A stretch of 64,000 nucleotides of DNA from Candidatus Nomurabacteria bacterium. GTDB lineage: Bacteria > Patescibacteriota > Minisyncoccia > Phycocordibacterales > UBA918. The notes below the pieces were generated by a model, which was not told the DNA's origin, did not search any database, and saw nothing but the letters and a program-made list of their open reading frames with translations. This document shows positions 23,664 to 52,878 of the stretch, piece by piece. The stretch is taken from assembly GCA_023898565.1 (NCBI GenBank), contig CP060228.1, positions 840,930-904,929 on the forward strand, given 5' to 3'. The translations under genes and the position numbers were made by a program. Every line of letters begins with the position of its first letter. Positions within the stretch are counted from its first letter, which is position 1.

Positions 23664-26492
23664 ATGAATAAACGATTTAATCACAAAACTATCGAGAAAA
23701 AGTGGCAAGACACCTGGAAGGAGAGTGGTATCTATAAAACCACCGATAACAGCACAAAACCTAAAACGTACGTGCTGGATATGTTCCCGTACCCGTCAGG
23801 CGAAGGCTTGCATGTCGGACACCCTAAGGGCTATATCGCGACCGACATCTACTCACGCTTCAAGCGCATGACTGGCCACGAAGTACTCCACCCGATGGGT
23901 TGGGATGCCTTTGGCTTGCCGGCAGAAAACTTCGCTATCAAGCACAAAGTGCACCCAAGCGCTGCAGTAGCGAAAAATGTGGCACGCTTTAAAGAACAAC
24001 TTGAAGTGCTCGGCTTTGACTATGACTGGTCACGCGAAATCAACACCACCGACCCAAACTACTACAAGTGGACACAGTGGATTTTTATCCAACTTTACAA
24101 GAAAGGCTTGGCCTACGAGAGCAATGAACCTATCAACTGGTGCCCAGGCTGCCAGACTGGCTTAGCAAATGAAGACTTAAATGCCGACGGCACCTGTGAA
24201 CGCTGTGATAGCGTCGTCGAAAAGAAGCCAATGCGTCAATGGGTGCTTAAAATTCGTGAGTACGCCGACCGCATGCTCGCAGACCTCGACACCCTCAATT
24301 GGCCAGAACATATCAAAGAGGCACAGCGCAATTGGATTGGCAAAAGCGAAGGAGCCGAGATTGATTTTACACTTTCAACTGGAGACACAGTGACTGTTTT
24401 CACGACACGTCCTGATACACTTTTTGGCGCTACGTACATGGTACTTGCACCAGAACACGAGCTGGTTTTTAAGCATCACGAGACTATCAGCAACTGGAAT
24501 GAGGTAGCAGCGTATGTAAAAGAAGCTGCAAACAAAAAAGAAATGGACCGCCTCGACGACACTAAGGAGAAGACCGGAGTGAAGCTTGAAGGTATTACTG
24601 CAACCAATCCAGCAACCGGTGAGGAGATTCCAGTCTATATTGCAGATTACGTACTTGCTTCGTACGGCACCGGCGCCATTATGGCTGTACCAGCTCATGA
24701 TGAACGTGACTTCGCGTTTGCGAAGAAGTTTGGGATTGAAGTTAGGCCAGTAGTCGGAAAAATTTTCAATCAATTTAAGAACGTTGAAGTGCATCGTCGT
24801 GGCGTATATGGGCTTATCACAAATGAGAATGGCGAGTATTTACTTCAGTATTTTAGAAACAAAAACTTTTATTGGTTGCCTGGCGGAGGTGTTGAAGGTG
24901 ACGAGTCTGAAGAAGACTGCCTAAAGCGAGAAATGGCTGAAGAAAGCGGTTTTGCATCATTTTCTACAGCCAAGAAAGTTGCAACTGTATTCTACGATCA
25001 CAATTCACGCAAAGATGGTAAGAGCGCTCGAAATAAAACGACCGTCTATCGTGCAACTGTTTCTACATCAGAGCAGGGCCATGTCTCACTTACTGATGAT
25101 GAAATTGCGGACGGCTTAGAATTAGTTTGGGTCGCTCCAGAGAAGCTAAATAAAACACTTGATGCTGGAGAAGCTTCACGTTCAGAGTTACTGAAGTATC
25201 TCATTAAATTTGATAGTGCCACTGCAAAACCAGAATGTGGCGCACTTCTTAACTCCGGCGAATTTGACGGCATGACCTCAGAGGAAGCGAAAGTCGCTAT
25301 TACTGAAAAAGTTGGTGGGCGACTTACTTCAACCTATAAAATTAAAGATTGGGTCTTTAGTCGTCAGCGCTACTGGGGCGAGCCAATTCCAATTGTGCAC
25401 TGTGATACCTGTGGAGCGGTGCCAGTGCCAGAAGAGCAGCTACCGGTGACGTTGCCGGACGTGGAGCAGTATGAGCCGGCCGGCGACGGCCAGAGTCCGC
25501 TTGCGAATATTTCGGATTGGGTGAACACCACATGTCCAGCGTGTGGCGGAGCCGGCCGGCGCGAGACCAACACCATGCCACAATGGGCAGGTTCTTCATG
25601 GTACTACCTCCGCTACATGGATCCACAAAATAACGACGCATTAGTTTCGAAAGAAAACGAACAATACTGGGCACCAGTCGATGTCTACGTAGGCGGTGAT
25701 CACGCAGTGCGTCATCTTATTTATGCGCGCTTCTGGCACAAATTCCTCTACGACATCGATGTTGTTTCTACCATCGAACCATTCCAGCGACTTGAGTTTC
25801 TTGGCTTCATCTTGGCGGAAGACGGCCGCAAGATGAGTAAACGTTGGGGAAATGTAATCAACCCGGATGACGTAGTAGCTATTGTGGGTGCGGACACCCT
25901 CCGTATCTATGAAATGTTCATGGGACCTTTTGAAAACACCATCGCCTGGAGCCAGGACGGCCTCGCGGGCGCAAGACGCTTCCTAGAGCGCCTCAATGGC
26001 CTTAGCGAGCACATTGGTGATGAACCTAAGGAAACTACTTCATTACTTCACAAAACTATTAAAAAAGTGACTGAGGACATTGAAGGCTTTAAGTTCAACA
26101 CTGCTATCAGCGCCATGATGATTTTCCTCAATCAGGCTGAGAAAACAGGCATCAGCAAAGAAAGTTACGAGACGTTCCTCAAGCTCCTCGCGCCATTCGC
26201 ACCACACATTACCGAAGAACTGTGGCACGAAGCAGGGAAGAGTGACAGCGTACACACCGGCATATTCCCAGTATTTGACGCATCGCTTGCGAAAGACGAT
26301 GTGGTTGTAATCGGCGTACAGTTTAACGGCAAGTCGCGCGGACAAATCGAAATCGCTCCCGACGCCACCGAAGCCGATGCTCTCGAGACCCTCAAAAGAG
26401 ACGAATCACTCGCCAAGCGAATTGACGGAAAAGAGATAAAAAAAGTCATTTACGTACCAGGCAGAATCCTTAATATTATCGTTCAAGAATAG
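23664..26492 (+). CDS. leuS: Leucyl-tRNA synthetase carrying an inserted Nudix hydrolase module of about 160 aa (nt ~24762–25239)
   Basis: Class I HIGH-type catalytic core (PYPSGEGLHVGHPKGY), CP1 editing region (TTRPDT...AHDERDF) and KMSKR-region homology. A complete Nudix box GGVEGDESEEDCLKREMAEESGF sits between the editing domain and the Leu-specific/catalytic continuation (LNSGEFDG...). Confidence 0.9.
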   Translation: MNKRFNHKTIEKKWQDTWKESGIYKTTDNSTKPKTYVLDMFPYPSGEGLHVGHPKGYIATDIYSRFKRMTGHEVLHPMGWDAFGLPAENFAIKHKVHPSAAVAKNVARFKEQLEVLGFDYDWSREINTTDPNYYKWTQWIFIQLYKKGLAYESNEPINWCPGCQTGLANEDLNADGTCERCDSVVEKKPMRQWVLKIREYADRMLADLDTLNWPEHIKEAQRNWIGKSEGAEIDFTLSTGDTVTVFTTRPDTLFGATYMVLAPEHELVFKHHETISNWNEVAAYVKEAANKKEMDRLDDTKEKTGVKLEGITATNPATGEEIPVYIADYVLASYGTGAIMAVPAHDERDFAFAKKFGIEVRPVVGKIFNQFKNVEVHRRGVYGLITNENGEYLLQYFRNKNFYWLPGGGVEGDESEEDCLKREMAEESGFASFSTAKKVATVFYDHNSRKDGKSARNKTTVYRATVSTSEQGHVSLTDDEIADGLELVWVAPEKLNKTLDAGEASRSELLKYLIKFDSATAKPECGALLNSGEFDGMTSEEAKVAITEKVGGRLTSTYKIKDWVFSRQRYWGEPIPIVHCDTCGAVPVPEEQLPVTLPDVEQYEPAGDGQSPLANISDWVNTTCPACGGAGRRETNTMPQWAGSSWYYLRYMDPQNNDALVSKENEQYWAPVDVYVGGDHAVRHLIYARFWHKFLYDIDVVSTIEPFQRLEFLGFILAEDGRKMSKRWGNVINPDDVVAIVGADTLRIYEMFMGPFENTIAWSQDGLAGARRFLERLNGLSEHIGDEPKETTSLLHKTIKKVTEDIEGFKFNTAISAMMIFLNQAEKTGISKESYETFLKLLAPFAPHITEELWHEAGKSDSVHTGIFPVFDASLAKDDVVVIGVQFNGKSRGQIEIAPDATEADALETLKRDESLAKRIDGKEIKKVIYVPGRILNIIVQE

Positions 26493-44580: not shown

Positions 44581-44589
44581 AGGTTGTGT

Positions 44590-44640
44590 GTTGTGAAAAC
44601 GACGGCCGGGCCCAAAGGGCCCGGCCGTCGTTTTCACAAC
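44590..44640. repeat. 51-nt perfect GC-rich palindrome (24-bp arms, 3-nt loop) immediately after alaS
   Basis: GTTGTGAAAACGACGGCCGGGCCC-aaa-GGGCCCGGCCGTCGTTTTCACAAC, read directly from the sequence. Confidence 0.8.
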
Positions 44641-44690
44641 TATCACATCGGACTGATAAATGCGCTCACGTATGCTGTTATACTATCTGC

Positions 44691-45923
44691 ATGTCACTCT
44701 TTGGACTCAAGAAAAGCACCGACAGGTACGGCGTGCTCATTGACATTGGCTCAGGCAGCGTACTCACCGCCATCATATATTCCAATCCTAAAAATAAATA
44801 TCCTTTCATTATCTGGTCGCATCGAGAGCACGCCCCTTTGCGCAATATTGACTCACTCGAACAGAGTGCTAAAGCAGTCATGACTGCCTTAATGAATTCA
44901 TCAATGCGTCTTGACGCAGAAGGAAGAAAAGCTTTGTTTGACTACGACCAAGCCGCTGTCCTTAGTGAACTTCAGTGCAGCATTGCTGCACCTTGGGCAT
45001 ACACCGTCACCAAAACCATTAATTACAAGCAAGGAGCACCTTTCATCATCACTGAAGAACTGCTCGAAGAACTCACAAGCACAATCAACAAAAAGGTAGA
45101 AAACGACTTAGCTTCTAGTGCTGCTCTAAAAGACCTCGGCTTGCAGGCAATCACGCGAAACACCATGGATATGCTGTCAAACGGTTATCGCGTTCAGGAT
45201 CCTGAGGGTGAACAAGCAACCGAACTCACCCTATCAAAAACAACGGTTGTCACTCAAGAGTATTTGATAGACGCGATAACCGAAATGCAAAACAAGCTCT
45301 TCCCAAATACAGCAGCGCGTAAGTTGTCTTTTATACTTATGCTCTACGCAGTAACCCGCAGACTCCTTAATCAAAGCTATGACGTATGCCTCATAGATAT
45401 CACATACGAAGCGACTGAAATTGGCATTGTGCGTGATGGCGTACTCTCATACTGCACACACGCTCCATTTGGCTCTTTCTCACTCGCGCGAGAAATCTCA
45501 GCTGTCACAGGAGTTCCTCTGCACGAAGCGTTTGGATACCTACATACCGAGTCACCATATAGCTTTATCAAATCACTCCCGGACAATCAACAGGGGCAAA
45601 TTGAGTCTGTTTTTGATGCGTATATACAACAAATTAGCAAACTCTTCCACGAAACTGGTGACTCACTTTCAATTCCTAAGCAAATTTCGCTTCACGCTGA
45701 CTTAAACAGTGAAACACTCTTTTCTGACTTAATTGAAAAAGCAGTTAAACGATCAATCAAAAGCGAACCACGCATTATGCCTATTTCACAAGAAATCCTA
45801 CAACAGACATATGAGACGATTGACCCCGCCACAAAAAAGCAACTCCCCAAAGATACTGCGCTGCTTTTGTCAGCACAATTCTTCCATGACCAACTCAGTG
45901 CACACAGCTTTGAGTACCTTTAA
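44691..45923 (+). CDS. Actin-like ATPase (ASKHA fold), FtsA/PilM-like
   Basis: VLIDIGSGSVLTAII and a second phosphate motif CLIDITYEATEIGIVRDG...PFGSFSL. The start is set at Met 44691 after the palindrome. Confidence 0.5.
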   Translation: MSLFGLKKSTDRYGVLIDIGSGSVLTAIIYSNPKNKYPFIIWSHREHAPLRNIDSLEQSAKAVMTALMNSSMRLDAEGRKALFDYDQAAVLSELQCSIAAPWAYTVTKTINYKQGAPFIITEELLEELTSTINKKVENDLASSAALKDLGLQAITRNTMDMLSNGYRVQDPEGEQATELTLSKTTVVTQEYLIDAITEMQNKLFPNTAARKLSFILMLYAVTRRLLNQSYDVCLIDITYEATEIGIVRDGVLSYCTHAPFGSFSLAREISAVTGVPLHEAFGYLHTESPYSFIKSLPDNQQGQIESVFDAYIQQISKLFHETGDSLSIPKQISLHADLNSETLFSDLIEKAVKRSIKSEPRIMPISQEILQQTYETIDPATKKQLPKDTALLLSAQFFHDQLSAHSFEYL

Positions 45924-45948: not shown

Positions 45949-47295
45949 ATGGCACAAAAATGGAACCTGCAGGATATTCGACCAGCTGAGCCGAGAAAGC
46001 GTCGACTTCCACCAGAAATGCGCACCGTAGACACGAGTGCTGAAATGGAGACCTCACAACAACGACCAATAACACCTCCAAGCGACCGAGAGCATATCCC
46101 AAGCATCGTCATTGAAGACGGCAATAAAAACAATCGGAAACGACTACTGGTATCAATTGCACTGTTTGTTGTGATTGTTGGTGGCGCAGTAACACTCAGC
46201 GCTGTAATGGGGAAAACAGAACTTACTATATACCCAGTCAATCGTGAGCCGAATGTTAGCGCAGAAATTACCGCATATCCTGACAAGCGAGAAGGTGAAC
46301 TAACGTACGAAATCATGACGCTAGAGGCGACAGGTGAAAAGCAAGTTAAGGCTAGTGGGCAAGTGCAAGTGGAGGAGCTAGCTACGGGCATCATCGAAAT
46401 TAAGAAAACCACTCCTGGAGCCGAAAGACTTATTAAAAATACGCGATTCCGCACTTCTAGCGGACTCATTTTCCGTATCCAAGAATCAGTAGTGGTGCCT
46501 GGAGCAGTAAAGAATGAAAGCGGGCAATTAGTAGCAGGCACTATCCAAGCTGAAGTATTCGCAGATGACGTTGGTGAAGAGTACAACGCACCTGCCGGCA
46601 CCACATTTGATGTCCCAGGCTTTAAAGAGGGTGGTTACACTGCACTATATGAAGCAATTAGTGCCAGCGCACCGCAAGCCTTCACCGGTGGGTTCAGCGG
46701 ACCACAATTTCAGATTGATGAAGCAGAACTCCAGACAGCTCGTCAGGCTCTTCAAACTGAATTGCGCGATAATCTCCTGTTACGCATAGATAATGAAAAG
46801 CCGGCTGACTTTATCGCTTTTCCAAGTGCAGTTGCAGTTACCTACAATCAACTTCCTGCTGTGGAGTACGCAGGTGATTTGGTAACCATACGTGAACAAG
46901 CCATTCTTCAGATTCCGTTATTTAAGCAAACTGAATTTGGTTCGTACCTGGCAAAGGAAACAGTAGCCACATATAACGGCAATCCTGTGCGGGTAGAAGA
47001 TCCAACCGTTCTTAGTTTTAGTTATCTTTCTAGCACCACCAGTGCAAGCATTATCGCCAACGAACCTTCCCTCAGCTTCCGTTTAACCGGAAAGCCTCTT
47101 CTTGTCTGGGAATATGACGCAGAAAAGCTTAAAACGGATTTAGCAGGACTTCCTAAAACCGCTCTAACAAACGCTGTTCCAGCCTATCCAGGAATTCAAC
47201 GTGCCGAACTCAATATGACGCCATTCTGGCAGCGTACGTTCCCAGATGATCCAGAAGAAATCACTGTCATTGAACAAATTTCTAGTGAAGAGTAG
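45949..47295 (+). CDS. Bitopic membrane protein with a large extracytoplasmic domain (448 aa), unknown; probable partner of the upstream actin-like ATPase
   Basis: Basic cytoplasmic N-terminus, one TM (LLVSIALFVVIVGGAVTL), and a beta-rich exodomain. Confidence 0.45.
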   Translation: MAQKWNLQDIRPAEPRKRRLPPEMRTVDTSAEMETSQQRPITPPSDREHIPSIVIEDGNKNNRKRLLVSIALFVVIVGGAVTLSAVMGKTELTIYPVNREPNVSAEITAYPDKREGELTYEIMTLEATGEKQVKASGQVQVEELATGIIEIKKTTPGAERLIKNTRFRTSSGLIFRIQESVVVPGAVKNESGQLVAGTIQAEVFADDVGEEYNAPAGTTFDVPGFKEGGYTALYEAISASAPQAFTGGFSGPQFQIDEAELQTARQALQTELRDNLLLRIDNEKPADFIAFPSAVAVTYNQLPAVEYAGDLVTIREQAILQIPLFKQTEFGSYLAKETVATYNGNPVRVEDPTVLSFSYLSSTTSASIIANEPSLSFRLTGKPLLVWEYDAEKLKTDLAGLPKTALTNAVPAYPGIQRAELNMTPFWQRTFPDDPEEITVIEQISSEE

Positions 47296-51331: not shown

Positions 51332-51346
51332 TCCTACAGACTACAC

Positions 51347-51375
51347 AAAAACTCCCCAGTGGGGAGTTTTTGTAT
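51347..51375 (+). terminator. Intrinsic terminator after the ribosomal operon
   Basis: AAAAACTCCCCA-gt-GGGGAGTTTTTG. Confidence 0.75.
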
Positions 51376-51414
51376 GTTATAAATACTTTAGAGCCATACT
51401 AGGGAGACACGACC

Positions 51415-51504
51415 ATGAAGACACAGCGCGGTATTACCATTATTCAACTCCTTTTGCTGATAGCAATCCTCGGATTGGTACTAGCCTCGCTCATACCAAC
51501 ATAA
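51415..51504 (+). CDS. 29-aa mini-protein resembling a type IV prepilin leader plus N-terminal helix only
   Basis: RBS GGGAGA 7 nt upstream. MKTQRG|ITIIQLLLLIAILGLVLASLIPT parallels MK..KGFTLIELLVVIAIIGILA. A dedicated terminator follows. Confidence 0.4.
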   Translation: MKTQRGITIIQLLLLIAILGLVLASLIPT

Positions 51505-51515
51505 GCACCGACACG

Positions 51516-51543
51516 CAGCGCCTCCGGGCGCTGTTTTCTATTT
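51516..51543 (+). terminator. Intrinsic terminator after the mini-ORF
   Basis: CAGCGCC-tccg-GGCGCTGTTTTCTATTT. Confidence 0.6.
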
Positions 51544-51596
51544 ACTTTTTATGAAAATGTTGTATTGTATTAAAAGATAAACCACAGGAGTTCATC

Positions 51597-51947
51597 ATGC
51601 GAATTGCTGTTATTGAACCGAACCAAGACGACCTTTTTCTCATCGAGCACCTGCTTCGTCAATGCAACCACAAAGTCATCTGTATCTCTCACAGCAAAGG
51701 AGCAATGGCTCTCGGCCCTAACGAAGCAGATGCGATTATCATGGAGTACGATCAAGGCCCCGACAACCCCTCTGCAGCAGACATCTGCTGGACAGCAGTG
51801 ACCTGGAAACGCTGGGTGCCCTGCCTGGTCCACACCGACCACCCAGACCGCATCCGGGCAGAACTTTTCCCTCCCAACACAGCATACAGAGAAAAAGGAA
51901 AGGATTTCAAGTACATCATCGACTTCCTGAAGCTCGTGCAGCAGTAA
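51597..51947 (+). CDS. Standalone receiver (REC/CheY-like) domain protein, probably degenerate (Glu at the phospho-acceptor position)
   Basis: RBS AGGAG before the ATG. MRIAVIEPNQDDLFLIEHLL... resembles a REC N-terminus, but the acidic pocket is non-canonical. Preferred over the overlapping minus-strand ORF. Confidence 0.4.
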   Translation: MRIAVIEPNQDDLFLIEHLLRQCNHKVICISHSKGAMALGPNEADAIIMEYDQGPDNPSAADICWTAVTWKRWVPCLVHTDHPDRIRAELFPPNTAYREKGKDFKYIIDFLKLVQQ

Positions 51948-52001
51948 CACAATTTTGGCCCGCGCAAAGCGCGGGCCACTTCATGACACCCTGGAGACCA
52001 T

Positions 52002-52151
52002 ATGAACCATTTTGTACTCAGTCTCGTCTTCGCACTTGTGTTCTCACTGAGCATCAGCACTTTCACTACCAGCAGCCACAAGGCACAGAGTGTTCTAGCG
52101 AAACTCGCTACCACCATTGCACTTGTGTACTTGTTGTACACACTTACATAA
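52002..52151 (+). CDS. 49-aa hydrophobic mini-protein (2 predicted TM segments)
   Basis: RBS GGAGA 7 nt upstream of ATG 52002. MNHFVLSLVFALVFSLSISTFTTSSHKAQSVLAKLATTIALVYLLYTLT; a strong terminator follows. Confidence 0.4.
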   Translation: MNHFVLSLVFALVFSLSISTFTTSSHKAQSVLAKLATTIALVYLLYTLT

Positions 52152-52180
52152 ACGACTCCTTCCTGGAGTCGTTTTTTTGA
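52152..52180 (+). terminator. Intrinsic terminator
   Basis: ACGACTCC-ttcct-GGAGTCGTTTTTTTG. Confidence 0.75.
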
Positions 52181-52206
52181 CAGCAGACATTTTTCTATTT
52201 ATAATG
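52177..52206 (+). promoter_or_regulatory. Consensus sigma70 promoter TTGACA-18-TATAAT for grpE-dnaK-dnaJ
   Basis: TTGACA at 52177–52182, TATAAT at 52201–52206, ATG at 52215. Confidence 0.55.
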
Positions 52207-52214
52207 CGCCCCGT

Positions 52215-52814
52215 ATGGTGTATATGAACAATGAAAACGACGAAGTAGAGGTAGAAACCACCAACGATGATATTGACTTAGAAGAAACTGAATTAGTAGA
52301 CGTAGAAGAGAAGAGCGGCGACAAGATTAAAAAACTGCAAGAGAAGCTGCGCCGTGCAGAAGAAGAAAAGAAAGAAGCTCAAGACGAGCTCCAGCGCGCA
52401 CGCGCAGATTTCCTCAATGCCCGAAAACGACTCGACGAGGAACGCATCCGTGACCGCGCCCGGGCAAAAATAGCACACGTAGAAGAGTTACTGCCACTTT
52501 GCGACAGCTTCTATATGGCGATGAGCAATAAGGAAGCCTGGGAAAAAGCTGATGAAGCTTGGCGCAAAGGTGTCGAAGGTATTAACGGCCAACTCAATCG
52601 CATTCTTGATTCATACGGAGTGAAGGCGATTGACCCCCAAGGCGAAGTGTTTGACCCACACCGCGACGAAGCAATTGGTACCGAAAAGGTAACCGATGAA
52701 AAGCTCGTCGATACAGTAGTAACCGTCGTACAGCGAGGATTTGAAATGGAAGTAGACGGGAAAATGACAGTCATACGACATGCTCGGGTAACCACTGGAA
52801 TTATGAATGAGTAA
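52215..52814 (+). CDS. grpE: Nucleotide exchange factor GrpE
   Basis: Acidic N-terminus, long coiled-coil, C-terminal beta domain; sits upstream of dnaK. Confidence 0.85.
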   Translation: MVYMNNENDEVEVETTNDDIDLEETELVDVEEKSGDKIKKLQEKLRRAEEEKKEAQDELQRARADFLNARKRLDEERIRDRARAKIAHVEELLPLCDSFYMAMSNKEAWEKADEAWRKGVEGINGQLNRILDSYGVKAIDPQGEVFDPHRDEAIGTEKVTDEKLVDTVVTVVQRGFEMEVDGKMTVIRHARVTTGIMNE

Positions 52815-52848: not shown

Positions 52849-52878
52849 ATTTGCACCATTCCTAGTGCAAATCACTAG
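52849..52878 (+). promoter_or_regulatory. Overlapping inverted repeats between grpE and dnaK (ATTTGCAC-N8-GTGCAAAT and CTAGTG-N5-CACTAG); candidate heat-shock operator, not canonical CIRCE
   Basis: Read directly from the sequence. Located about 55 nt upstream of the dnaK ATG, with a TATACT -10-like hexamer at 52913. Confidence 0.4.

Follow-up and report, generated by a model that had tools for sequence, protein, structure and literature searches.

A predicted aspartate-less pseudo-receiver and two putative membrane micropeptides, one resembling a type IV pilin anchor, encoded between rpsI and grpE in a Candidatus Nomurabacteria genome

The spacer between rpsI and grpE in the genome of a Candidatus Nomurabacteria bacterium (contig CP060228.1) lies within the 64-kb stretch of DNA analyzed here (positions 840,930 to 904,929 of the contig), hereafter termed the window, and carries in 0.88 kb, between ribosomal-protein and chaperone genes, three tiny open reading frames (ORFs). 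The NCBI annotation of this interval runs from ribosomal protein S9 (USN88730) through an 80-aa hypothetical protein (USN88731) to GrpE (USN88732), leaving both ORF1 and ORF3 unannotated and calling ORF2 only from its internal Met37, which yields 80 aa instead of 116 aa. The 116-aa form is the correct one, as shown by its conserved Shine-Dalgarno (SD) site and ATG and by the N-terminal β1-α1-β2 elements of the predicted fold. The coordinates and translations that a preliminary description of this DNA had assigned to the three ORFs are confirmed by the sequence, as are the SD sites that it had reported, which can be read directly. The features of the locus are as follows, with coordinates counted from the first letter of the window and related contigs designated by labels such as L011.

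51345..51373, + strand: intrinsic terminator of rpsI, with core CTCCCC-AGT-GGGGAG plus a T run (-19.4 kcal/mol, z -4.4), kept in L011 and L032.
51375..51383, + strand: candidate extended -10 promoter of ORF1, TGtTATAAA.
51402..51407, + strand: SD site of ORF1, GGGAGA, with a 7-nt spacer to the ATG, kept in L011 and L032.
51415..51504, + strand: ORF1, encoding a putative 29-aa membrane micropeptide that resembles pilin α1-N, MKTQRG followed by ITIIQLLLLIAILGLVLASLIPT.
51515..51544, + strand: intrinsic terminator of ORF1, GCAGCGCC-tccg-GGCGCTGT (hairpin 51515-51534) plus TTTTCTATTT.
51541..51568, + strand: candidate promoter of ORF2-ORF3, TTTACT-16-TATTGT.
51586-51590, + strand: SD site of ORF2, AGGAG, with a 6-nt spacer.
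51597..51947, + strand: ORF2, encoding a 116-aa stand-alone protein of predicted receiver fold, an aspartate-less pseudo-receiver with key residues E7, P8, E50, T80 and K100.
51618..51951, + strand: swapped segment of ORF2 (recombination cassette), with conserved flanks.
51956..51978, + strand: G+C hairpin between ORF2 and ORF3, TGGCCCGCGC-AAA-GCGCGGGCCA, without a U-tract.
51993..51997, + strand: SD site of ORF3, GGAGA, with a 4-nt spacer to the ATG.
52002..52151, + strand: ORF3, encoding a putative membrane micropeptide of 49 aa, its two helices joined by a polar loop of positive charge, TTSSHKAQ.
52150..52179, + strand: intrinsic terminator of ORF3 and its operon, ACGACTCC-ttcct-GGAGTCGT (hairpin 52150-52174) plus T7.
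52177..52205, + strand: grpE promoter, TTGACA-17-TATAAT (12/12 consensus), which marks the end of the locus.

Informative relatives of the locus were reached via homologues of GrpE and of the receiver. Ten contigs with the same ORF2 (L001-L010) do not differ from the window anywhere in the spacer and hence add no polymorphism. Other contigs compare with the window as listed here, where Asp type and Glu type refer to the residue at the phospho-acceptor position discussed below.

L011: GrpE with 4 non-synonymous differences from the window; ORF1 present; receiver of the Asp type; ORF3 present.
L048: grpE synonymous divergence (dS) 0.58, contig beginning inside the receiver; ORF1 not visible; receiver of the Glu type; ORF3 present.
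L032: GrpE 88% identical; ORF1 present; receiver of the Asp type; ORF3 present (54 aa).
L040-L043: GrpE 62%; ORF1 absent; receiver of the Asp type; ORF3 present.
L044: GrpE 73%; ORF1 absent; receiver of a third type; ORF3 absent.
L034: GrpE 74%; ORF1 absent; receiver of the third type; ORF3 absent.
L046: GrpE 71%; no ORF1, receiver or ORF3, the rpsI terminator being followed directly by the grpE promoter.
L033, L035, L045 and L047: GrpE 73-76%; no ORF1 or ORF3; other genes upstream of grpE.

These occurrences are nested: a receiver upstream of grpE is common in the clade, the receiver together with ORF3 is found in a subset, and ORF1 is confined to the tightest group. Four lineages besides that of the window thus have ORF3 behind the receiver, with GrpE identities as low as 62%, and in L040 the receiver operon exists without ORF1. 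A scan of genome contigs with GrpE retrieved only distant GrpE proteins from unrelated phyla. The rpsI-grpE spacer itself is a hot spot of gene turnover in this clade (L033, L034, L035, L044, L045, L046, L047), containing, depending on the genome, an IS30-like transposase, a UDP-glucose dehydrogenase, an acetyltransferase with the third receiver type, ORFs of unknown function, or nothing. Directly 3' of the rpsI stop codon, L011 (3875-4045) and L044 (1736-1900) also carry a structured element of ~170 nt, with a 10-bp hairpin, 5 compensatory pairs and a terminator-like hairpin of its own, which has no match in Rfam and can be considered a candidate unnamed small RNA or 3' untranslated region (UTR) element; it is absent from the window, which has only 16 nt at this place (51332-51347), and has been deleted in the lineage of the window.

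Substitution patterns among these relatives show that all three ORFs are real protein-coding genes under purifying selection. The ORF1 protein is identical in L011, all 6 substitutions in 87 nt being synonymous (6/6, binomial p 5e-4), and 24/29 of its residues are identical in L032, where ~17 of the 27 nucleotide differences are synonymous (p about 1e-4 to 6e-4). The resulting ratios of non-synonymous to synonymous substitution (dN/dS) are 0 against L011 and 0.09 and 0.07 in the L032 comparisons, as compared with 0.03-0.065 for grpE and with values from 0.37 to above 6 in shifted frames of ORF1. Its length is fixed at 29 codons, and the SD site, the TGtTATAAA block and the terminator are all conserved in L011 and L032. 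Homologues of ORF3, with 49-54 aa, directly follow the receiver in L011, L048, L032 and L040-L043 (86%, 86%, 55% and 46% identical to the window, respectively); dN/dS is 0.11-0.22 in informative pairs and 0.86-1.9 in shifted frames (L032 comparisons), and synonymous changes are in excess, p ranging from 4e-5 to 3e-3 (14/21 changes against L048, p 4e-5). For the Glu-type receiver, which is 56% identical between the window and L048, dN/dS is 0.14. The preliminary description had named conservation of the micro-ORF reading frames in relatives as a check, and the frames are indeed conserved with an excess of synonymous change; the purifying selection on both mini-ORFs runs counter to its suggestion that a pilin-like remnant might be involved.

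The locus had been described as three autonomous transcription units, each of them with its own intrinsic terminator. This is correct for the terminators of ORF1 and ORF3. The former (-16.6 kcal/mol, z -3.5) is followed by TTTTCTATTT, and its hairpin is preserved in L032 via paired changes (GCACC/GGTGC), while the latter (-15.2 kcal/mol, z -5.6) is followed by T7 and conserved in L011, L032, L040 and L048. The hairpin downstream of ORF2, on the other hand, has a U-tract on neither strand (CTTCATGAC follows on the + strand and AAATTGTG on the - strand) and is not a canonical intrinsic terminator. For the 60-nt stretch that holds it (51945-52004) the folding energy is -24.7 kcal/mol (z -5.0); L011 has the hairpin as well, in L032 it is degraded (z -1.2), and the corresponding gap of L040 contains a longer hairpin of other sequence (-32.4, z -7.2). 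The hairpin of the window is probably an intra-operon element for mRNA stability or processing. Only 14 nt separate the end of this hairpin from the SD site of ORF3, and since such a gap leaves no room for a promoter and the hairpin has no U-tract, ORF3 does not appear to be autonomous. ORF2 and ORF3 are thus probably one operon, and the locus would comprise two transcription units rather than three.

Upstream of ORF1, the block TGTTATAAAT is identical in the window, L011 and L032, but the candidate promoter has no -35 match and was not reported by a generic promoter scan. The candidate promoter of ORF2-ORF3 scores 8/12 against the consensus, under the cut-off of the promoter scan, and its block TGTTGTATT is invariant in the window, L011, L032 and L040. 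In an alignment, the ORF1 terminator corresponds to that of rpsI in L040, and the downstream block TTTAC...TGTTGTATT is conserved in all four genomes; the ORF1 unit was therefore inserted upstream of the ancestral terminator. The grpE promoter overlaps the T-run of the ORF3 terminator and is conserved in L040, L046 and L048, with L044 retaining the -10 block TATAATGCGCnCGTATGGTG. With this perfect promoter of grpE located downstream of the terminator of ORF3, a single non-coding grpE leader, the outcome that the preliminary description had set against its own proposal, is refuted for the region. A scan of the region against Rfam detected no family. As for grpE itself, within 52177-52224 of the window its annotated ATG is located only 10 nt past the -10 element and has no SD site, and the TATAATGCGCnCGTATGGTG block recurs in L040, L044, L046 and L048, so that the grpE mRNA is probably leaderless or nearly so.

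For the comparison of the ORF1 product with type IV pilins, feature definitions were taken from PMC6916266 and PMC5059446 (family IPR012902). A class III signal is defined by a hydrophilic leader peptide with Gly at -1 (PMC6916266), and the ORF1 leader MKTQRG consists of six residues, two of them basic, ending in a Gly6 that is invariant in the three alleles. The hydrophobic tract that follows, ITIIQLLLLIAILGLVLASLIPT, has 23 residues with Thr2, in agreement with the ~21 residues and Thr/Ser at +2 of pilins, and Gly20 and Pro28 of the precursor, both invariant, fall at +14 and +22, as do the Gly14 and Pro22 of type IVa pilins and pseudopilins. A phmmer search against 177,635 PDB sequences yielded 5 matches at E<=10, all of them type IV pilins (best E 0.007), namely Geobacter PilA-N, which is the best match, Myxococcus PilA and MshA. 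All align in register from G-1 to P22, with KTQRG and ITIIQLLLLIAILGLVLASLIP opposite KG and FTLIELLIVVAIIGILAAIAIP, and no match (0) was obtained in PDB when the hydrophobic part of ORF1 was reversed or shuffled, so that the likeness to a pilin N-terminus noticed in the preliminary description is upheld. In NCBIfam, only five full-length pilin or pseudopilin models respond to ORF1, at 11-15 bits versus cut-offs of 80-400. Position +1 is Ile rather than Phe, and the stop codon follows residue +23, leaving neither an α1-C segment nor the globular head of the pilin 'lollipop'. A six-frame motif search of the window detected no second pilin-like N-terminus, and ORF1 is absent from a collection of 15 billion proteins. 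Judged from these features, ORF1 would derive from, or work like, a pilin anchor and is not a pilin.

When metagenome contigs were scanned with the alignment of ORF1, the only matches were DUF4845 proteins of proteobacteria, whose genes lie between lepB and rnc. These share the MKTQRGIT start but were rejected as relatives of ORF1. At the loci concerned (L037 1138-1491, L038 432-812, L039 737-1090), MKTQRGIT is followed by a hydrophobic helix, as in ORF1, which suggests that either the N-termini of DUF4845 proteins might be prepilin-like as well or the motif is convergent.

The middle gene had been described as a receiver-like domain without a canonical phospho-acceptor, and structure prediction agrees. 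The AlphaFold2 (AF2) model of ORF2 is a (βα)5 fold with a predicted local distance difference test score (pLDDT) of 81 and the elements E2-6 H10-22 E26-30 H33-36 E46-50 H60-68 E76-80 H83-87 E95-99 H105-115. Foldseek retrieves 309 matches in PDB at E<=0.001, of which the best 50 are receiver domains or fusions containing one (TM-score 0.73-0.82); ranked second is the constitutively active mutant PhoB D10A/D53E (PDB 2jb9, TM-score 0.74-0.81). At the sequence level, ORF2 has no Pfam match even at E<=10 and does not reach the gathering score of PF00072, whereas syntenic receivers pass its cut-off of 30.2 bits (44.2 in L011, 39.3 in L044 and 35.9 in L040) and that of L032 has a precomputed PF00072 match. 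ORF2 is nonetheless 34% identical to the L011 protein (BLASTP, E 4e-17). The phospho-acceptor position at the end of β3 is occupied by Glu50 (IIMEYD; codon 51744-51746) instead of Asp, and aligns with the Asp of VITDYQMPG in L011, L032, L034 and L040; Asp52 of ORF2 lies two residues further on, in the loop. The acidic pair after β1 is E7-P8 in ORF2 versus E7-D8 in L011 and L032, its first member (DD1) being kept and its second (DD2) lost, and T80 and K100, at the ends of predicted β4 and β5, are invariant columns that correspond to the conserved Thr and Lys of receivers. A pseudo-receiver is defined as a receiver fold in which one or more of the five catalytic residues are missing, and as an aspartate-less receiver (ALR) if the phospho-accepting D is among them; Glu is the commonest replacement of D in ALRs and is sometimes phosphomimetic (PMC12632262). 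By this definition the modelled ORF2 protein is an aspartate-less pseudo-receiver, with D and DD2 lost and the fold retained. Since the acceptor position is taken by Glu50 and the second metal-binding position by Pro8, the protein presumably works without phosphorylation. Its only match among 5.8 billion protein clusters is its own 80-aa NCBI version, and a protein-database search with the L011 receiver identified only 3 proteins.

The body of ORF2 has a different history from its surroundings. In a blastn comparison of the window with L011 the flanks are 90-94% identical and 51618-51951 has no match, and synonymous sites of ORF2 are saturated in this pair, the proportion of synonymous differences (pS) being 0.77 versus 0.11-0.26 in ORF3 and grpE. 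With neighbours so little diverged, fast evolution of ORF2 in situ can be rejected, and the pattern indicates that the body of the gene was replaced by recombination. The L048 receiver is also of the Glu type (..IMEYD..RWVPCLVHTDHP..REKG..), and L048 is placed outside the window-L011 pair by grpE dS, which suggests that the Glu and Asp types are two classes of allele, both maintained and both moving between closely related lineages.

ORF3 conforms to the two-helix hydrophobic peptide of the preliminary description in both hydropathy and its AF2 model (pLDDT 78), in which two hydrophobic helices (2-22 and 26-48) are joined by a polar loop with a conserved Lys/Arg27. No homologues were detected in Pfam or PDB, and only ORF3 itself among 1.84 billion representative proteins; the collection of 15 billion proteins contains one copy, from a Logan contig.

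Taken as a whole, the locus can be explained as a small, lineage-restricted accessory set of three genes in two transcription units, a proposal in which we place moderate confidence. The first unit would be a monocistronic 29-codon gene for a single-pass micropeptide that derives from, or mimics, the class III signal and α1-N segment of a type IVa pilin. The peptide would most likely insert with its N-terminus inside and would then probably be cleaved by a prepilin peptidase after Gly6, leaving a 23-residue anchor. Having neither Glu5 nor a head domain, this anchor cannot polymerize or be a building block of pili, but it could still occupy binding sites for pilin anchors. Through helix-helix contacts it might engage a protein that recognizes pilin anchors, such as the pilus platform, the peptidase or a membrane sensor, and act as a decoy or regulator. 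The second unit would be a bicistronic operon for a stand-alone receiver-fold protein, which Glu50 may lock in an active-like state, and for a 49-aa two-helix membrane micropeptide, a likely partner or membrane anchor of the co-transcribed receiver, the two forming, probably, a phosphorylation-independent adaptor at the membrane. Small membrane regulators, one of several options in the preliminary description, thus remain the best reading, with ORF1 as a mimic of the pilin anchor; we consider this reading somewhat probable, and its processing, topology, partners and regulatory role are what we infer from the features above.

Receivers, pseudo-receivers and pilin N-termini are each familiar as such, and several characterized systems resemble parts of the locus. 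Like type IVa pilins and the pseudopilins of type II secretion systems, ORF1 has a short leader that is basic and ends in Gly, followed by a hydrophobic tract that is nowhere interrupted and has Thr at +2, Gly14 and Pro22. The leader of P. aeruginosa PilA, MKAQKG, may be compared with MKTQRG in this respect. Type IVa pilins nevertheless have Glu5, Phe1, α1-C and a head, and ORF1 does not lie in a pilus gene cluster. Another parallel is PilA of Geobacter sulfurreducens (PilA-N), the best PDB match of ORF1 and a natural pilin without a globular head, in which it is described as unique (PMC5059446), although PilA-N keeps Phe1 and Glu5 and has 61 residues, while the mature ORF1 product would have 23 residues and no Glu5. 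As to signalling, a stretch of 17 residues from mature Caulobacter PilA is sufficient for a signal via the first transmembrane helix of the kinase PleC, and the same work cites direct intramembrane contact between PilA and PilS in Pseudomonas (PMC7196804), so that in the CIP peptide of Caulobacter PilA and in Pseudomonas PilA-PilS a pilin N-terminal transmembrane segment of ~17-25 residues serves as a membrane signal, as might ORF1. CIP, however, belongs to a complete pilin, from which it was isolated by experiment, whereas ORF1 is a free-standing gene beside a two-component-type receiver that is not phosphorylatable at the canonical site; no sensor kinase is known at this locus, and any functional link is hypothetical. 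Type IV pili and PilD are widespread in bacteria of the candidate phyla radiation (CPR; PMC6744442).

ORF2 in turn resembles ALRs and phosphomimetic D-to-E receivers (PMC12632262; PhoB D10A/D53E, 2jb9) in having Glu at D while retaining T and K, and departs from them in being stand-alone without an output domain, in probably sharing an operon with a micropeptide of two transmembrane helices, and in being allelic to an Asp-type receiver in sister strains. This family is also comparable to CheY-like single-domain response regulators, which are receiver-only proteins of ~120 aa, and the Asp-type alleles of L011, L032 and L040 contain all five catalytic residues and pass PF00072. Unlike CheY-like regulators, the locus has no chemotaxis or kinase context, and ORF2 lacks D and DD2.

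A number of observations weigh against the proposal. Glu at +5 is invariant in type IV pilins (PMC5059446), but that position of ORF1 is Gln in all three alleles, and Gln5 itself is maintained, L032 encoding it with CAG and the two other alleles with CAA. Pfam shows no family for ORF1 at E<=10 and no curated prepilin-motif model matches it at threshold, and the likeness of a short basic-then-hydrophobic peptide to pilins can partly be convergence. Among the ~60 ORFs scanned with Pfam in the window, which covers 64 kb of the 952-kb genome, none encodes a type IV pilus component, a prepilin peptidase or a histidine kinase. ORF1 is known from three close genomes only, with two distinct peptides, ORF3 has a dN/dS of 0.62 on 12 changes in the window-L011 pair alone, and neither ORF3 nor the Glu-type receiver has annotated homologues, which makes a role for either of them a guess.

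Several of these points would suit a generic single-pass small membrane protein whose pilin likeness is convergent and whose function is unrelated to type IV pili. The absence of Glu5, of Phe1 and of a curated prepilin-motif match, together with the lack of type IV pilus genes in the window, is what one would expect of such a protein, and unrelated DUF4845 proteins of proteobacteria begin with the same MKTQRGIT. The match of ORF1 is, however, order-specific (Thr2, Gly14, Pro22 and a leader length of 6) and is lost upon reversing or shuffling the hydrophobic part, and all PDB and NCBIfam matches are pilins or pseudopilins. We therefore regard a generic peptide as unlikely, albeit as the alternative to be taken most seriously.

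A bolder version of the regulator proposal would make ORF1 a free-standing pilin-anchor signalling or decoy peptide, the genome-encoded counterpart of Caulobacter CIP, which, with a kinase-independent receiver and a partner of two transmembrane helices, would constitute a minimal membrane signalling module. ORF1 would then report to, or interfere with, sensors of the pilin pool, and the receiver alleles would be exchangeable, with Asp phosphorylatable and Glu locked. This scheme is speculative and, as a whole, rather improbable.

Small toxins of type I systems, hydrophobic peptides held in check by an antisense RNA, share with ORF1 and ORF3 their size (29 and 49 aa), their hydrophobicity, their intergenic position and the fact of being missed by annotation pipelines. 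The layout of ORF1, and perhaps of ORF3, as a stand-alone promoter-ORF-terminator unit in an intergenic spacer is suggestive in this regard, as are an antisense promoter-like site inside ORF1 (TTGCTA-16-AATAAT) and the palindromic upstream rpsI terminator with A/T runs on both sides. Nevertheless, no conserved antisense RNA signal is apparent, the antisense -35 hexamer being absent from L032, and ORF1 has neither a long structured 5' UTR nor a charged C-terminal tail. ORF3, moreover, is probably co-transcribed with the receiver and no independent cassette, and a toxin leaves the in-register, order-specific pilin similarity of ORF1 unexplained. A toxin is thus very unlikely.

Much the same applies to ORF1 as a cis-acting leader peptide whose translation would tune terminator read-through into ORF2-ORF3, which we consider, if anything, slightly harder to sustain. 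The ORF1 stop codon (51502-51504) lies 10 nt before the hairpin that begins at 51515, so that a terminating ribosome would abut it, and ORF1 is located directly upstream of the receiver operon in 3/3 genomes having it. Yet the amino acids themselves are under purifying selection from one end of the peptide to the other, so that more than the act of being translated is selected, no alternative antiterminator structure was seen, and the receiver operon has a conserved promoter-like block of its own, also in L040, which has no ORF1. The bacteriocin or leader-type peptides of the preliminary description find no support either, as neither peptide has the GG motif of a double-glycine leader. The C39-like peptidase said to lie ~7 kb away could not be recovered: no scanned ORF of the window matches Peptidase_C39, including 44586-45923 and 45949-47295, two adjacent ORFs of ~445 aa without a Pfam family at threshold, the first of which has only a weak FtsA-like match.

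Finally, the notion that the mini-ORFs are non-coding (decayed remnants of pilin genes, or chance ORFs in UTRs) and the middle gene a decaying pseudogene could draw on the NCBI annotation, which omits both mini-ORFs and calls only 80 aa of ORF2, and on the lack of database homologues of ORF2 and ORF3, but is effectively refuted by the strong in-frame synonymous excess in ORF1, ORF3 and the Glu-type receiver, by the conserved lengths, SD sites and terminators, and by a confidently predicted receiver fold.

Two further features of the window lie outside the locus. Between grpE and dnaK (52849-52872) there is an inverted repeat, ATTTGCAC-N8-GTGCAAAT, of which the window contains 1 copy against a chance expectation of 0.03; it is kept in L011, not exactly in remoter relatives, and might be an operator in the promoter region of dnaK. 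The repeat differs from CIRCE, the consensus of which is TTAGCACTC-N9-GAGTGCTAA. Elsewhere (23664-26492), a leucyl-tRNA synthetase is encoded with a NUDIX domain inserted (residues 377-504) beside its editing domain.

The importance of the locus is potential rather than established, and its distribution is so far narrow. It nonetheless appears to include two selection-maintained membrane micropeptides that are invisible to standard annotation, flanking a gene that the NCBI pipeline has truncated, in a genome of 0.95 Mb in which every retained gene is likely to matter. To our knowledge, there is no described precedent for a selection-maintained gene that encodes a pilin anchor only and carries Gln5, for an Asp/Glu dimorphism of receivers exchanged at one locus, or for the ORF3 family. 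Close strains that differ in having an Asp receiver or, at the corresponding position, a Glu pseudo-receiver offer a clean natural contrast for the mechanism of pseudo-receivers, which a 2025 review terms a 'mystery'. Type IV pili are believed to play a central part in the host-attached way of life of CPR bacteria, the group to which this genome belongs. If the proposal made here for ORF1 is true, a 23-residue peptide consisting of α1-N only, with a fixed Gln5 where pilins have the Glu5 that is critical for assembly, would amount to a natural experiment on the roles of the pilin anchor beyond filament building, be it in sensing, as a decoy, or in occupancy of the peptidase or platform.

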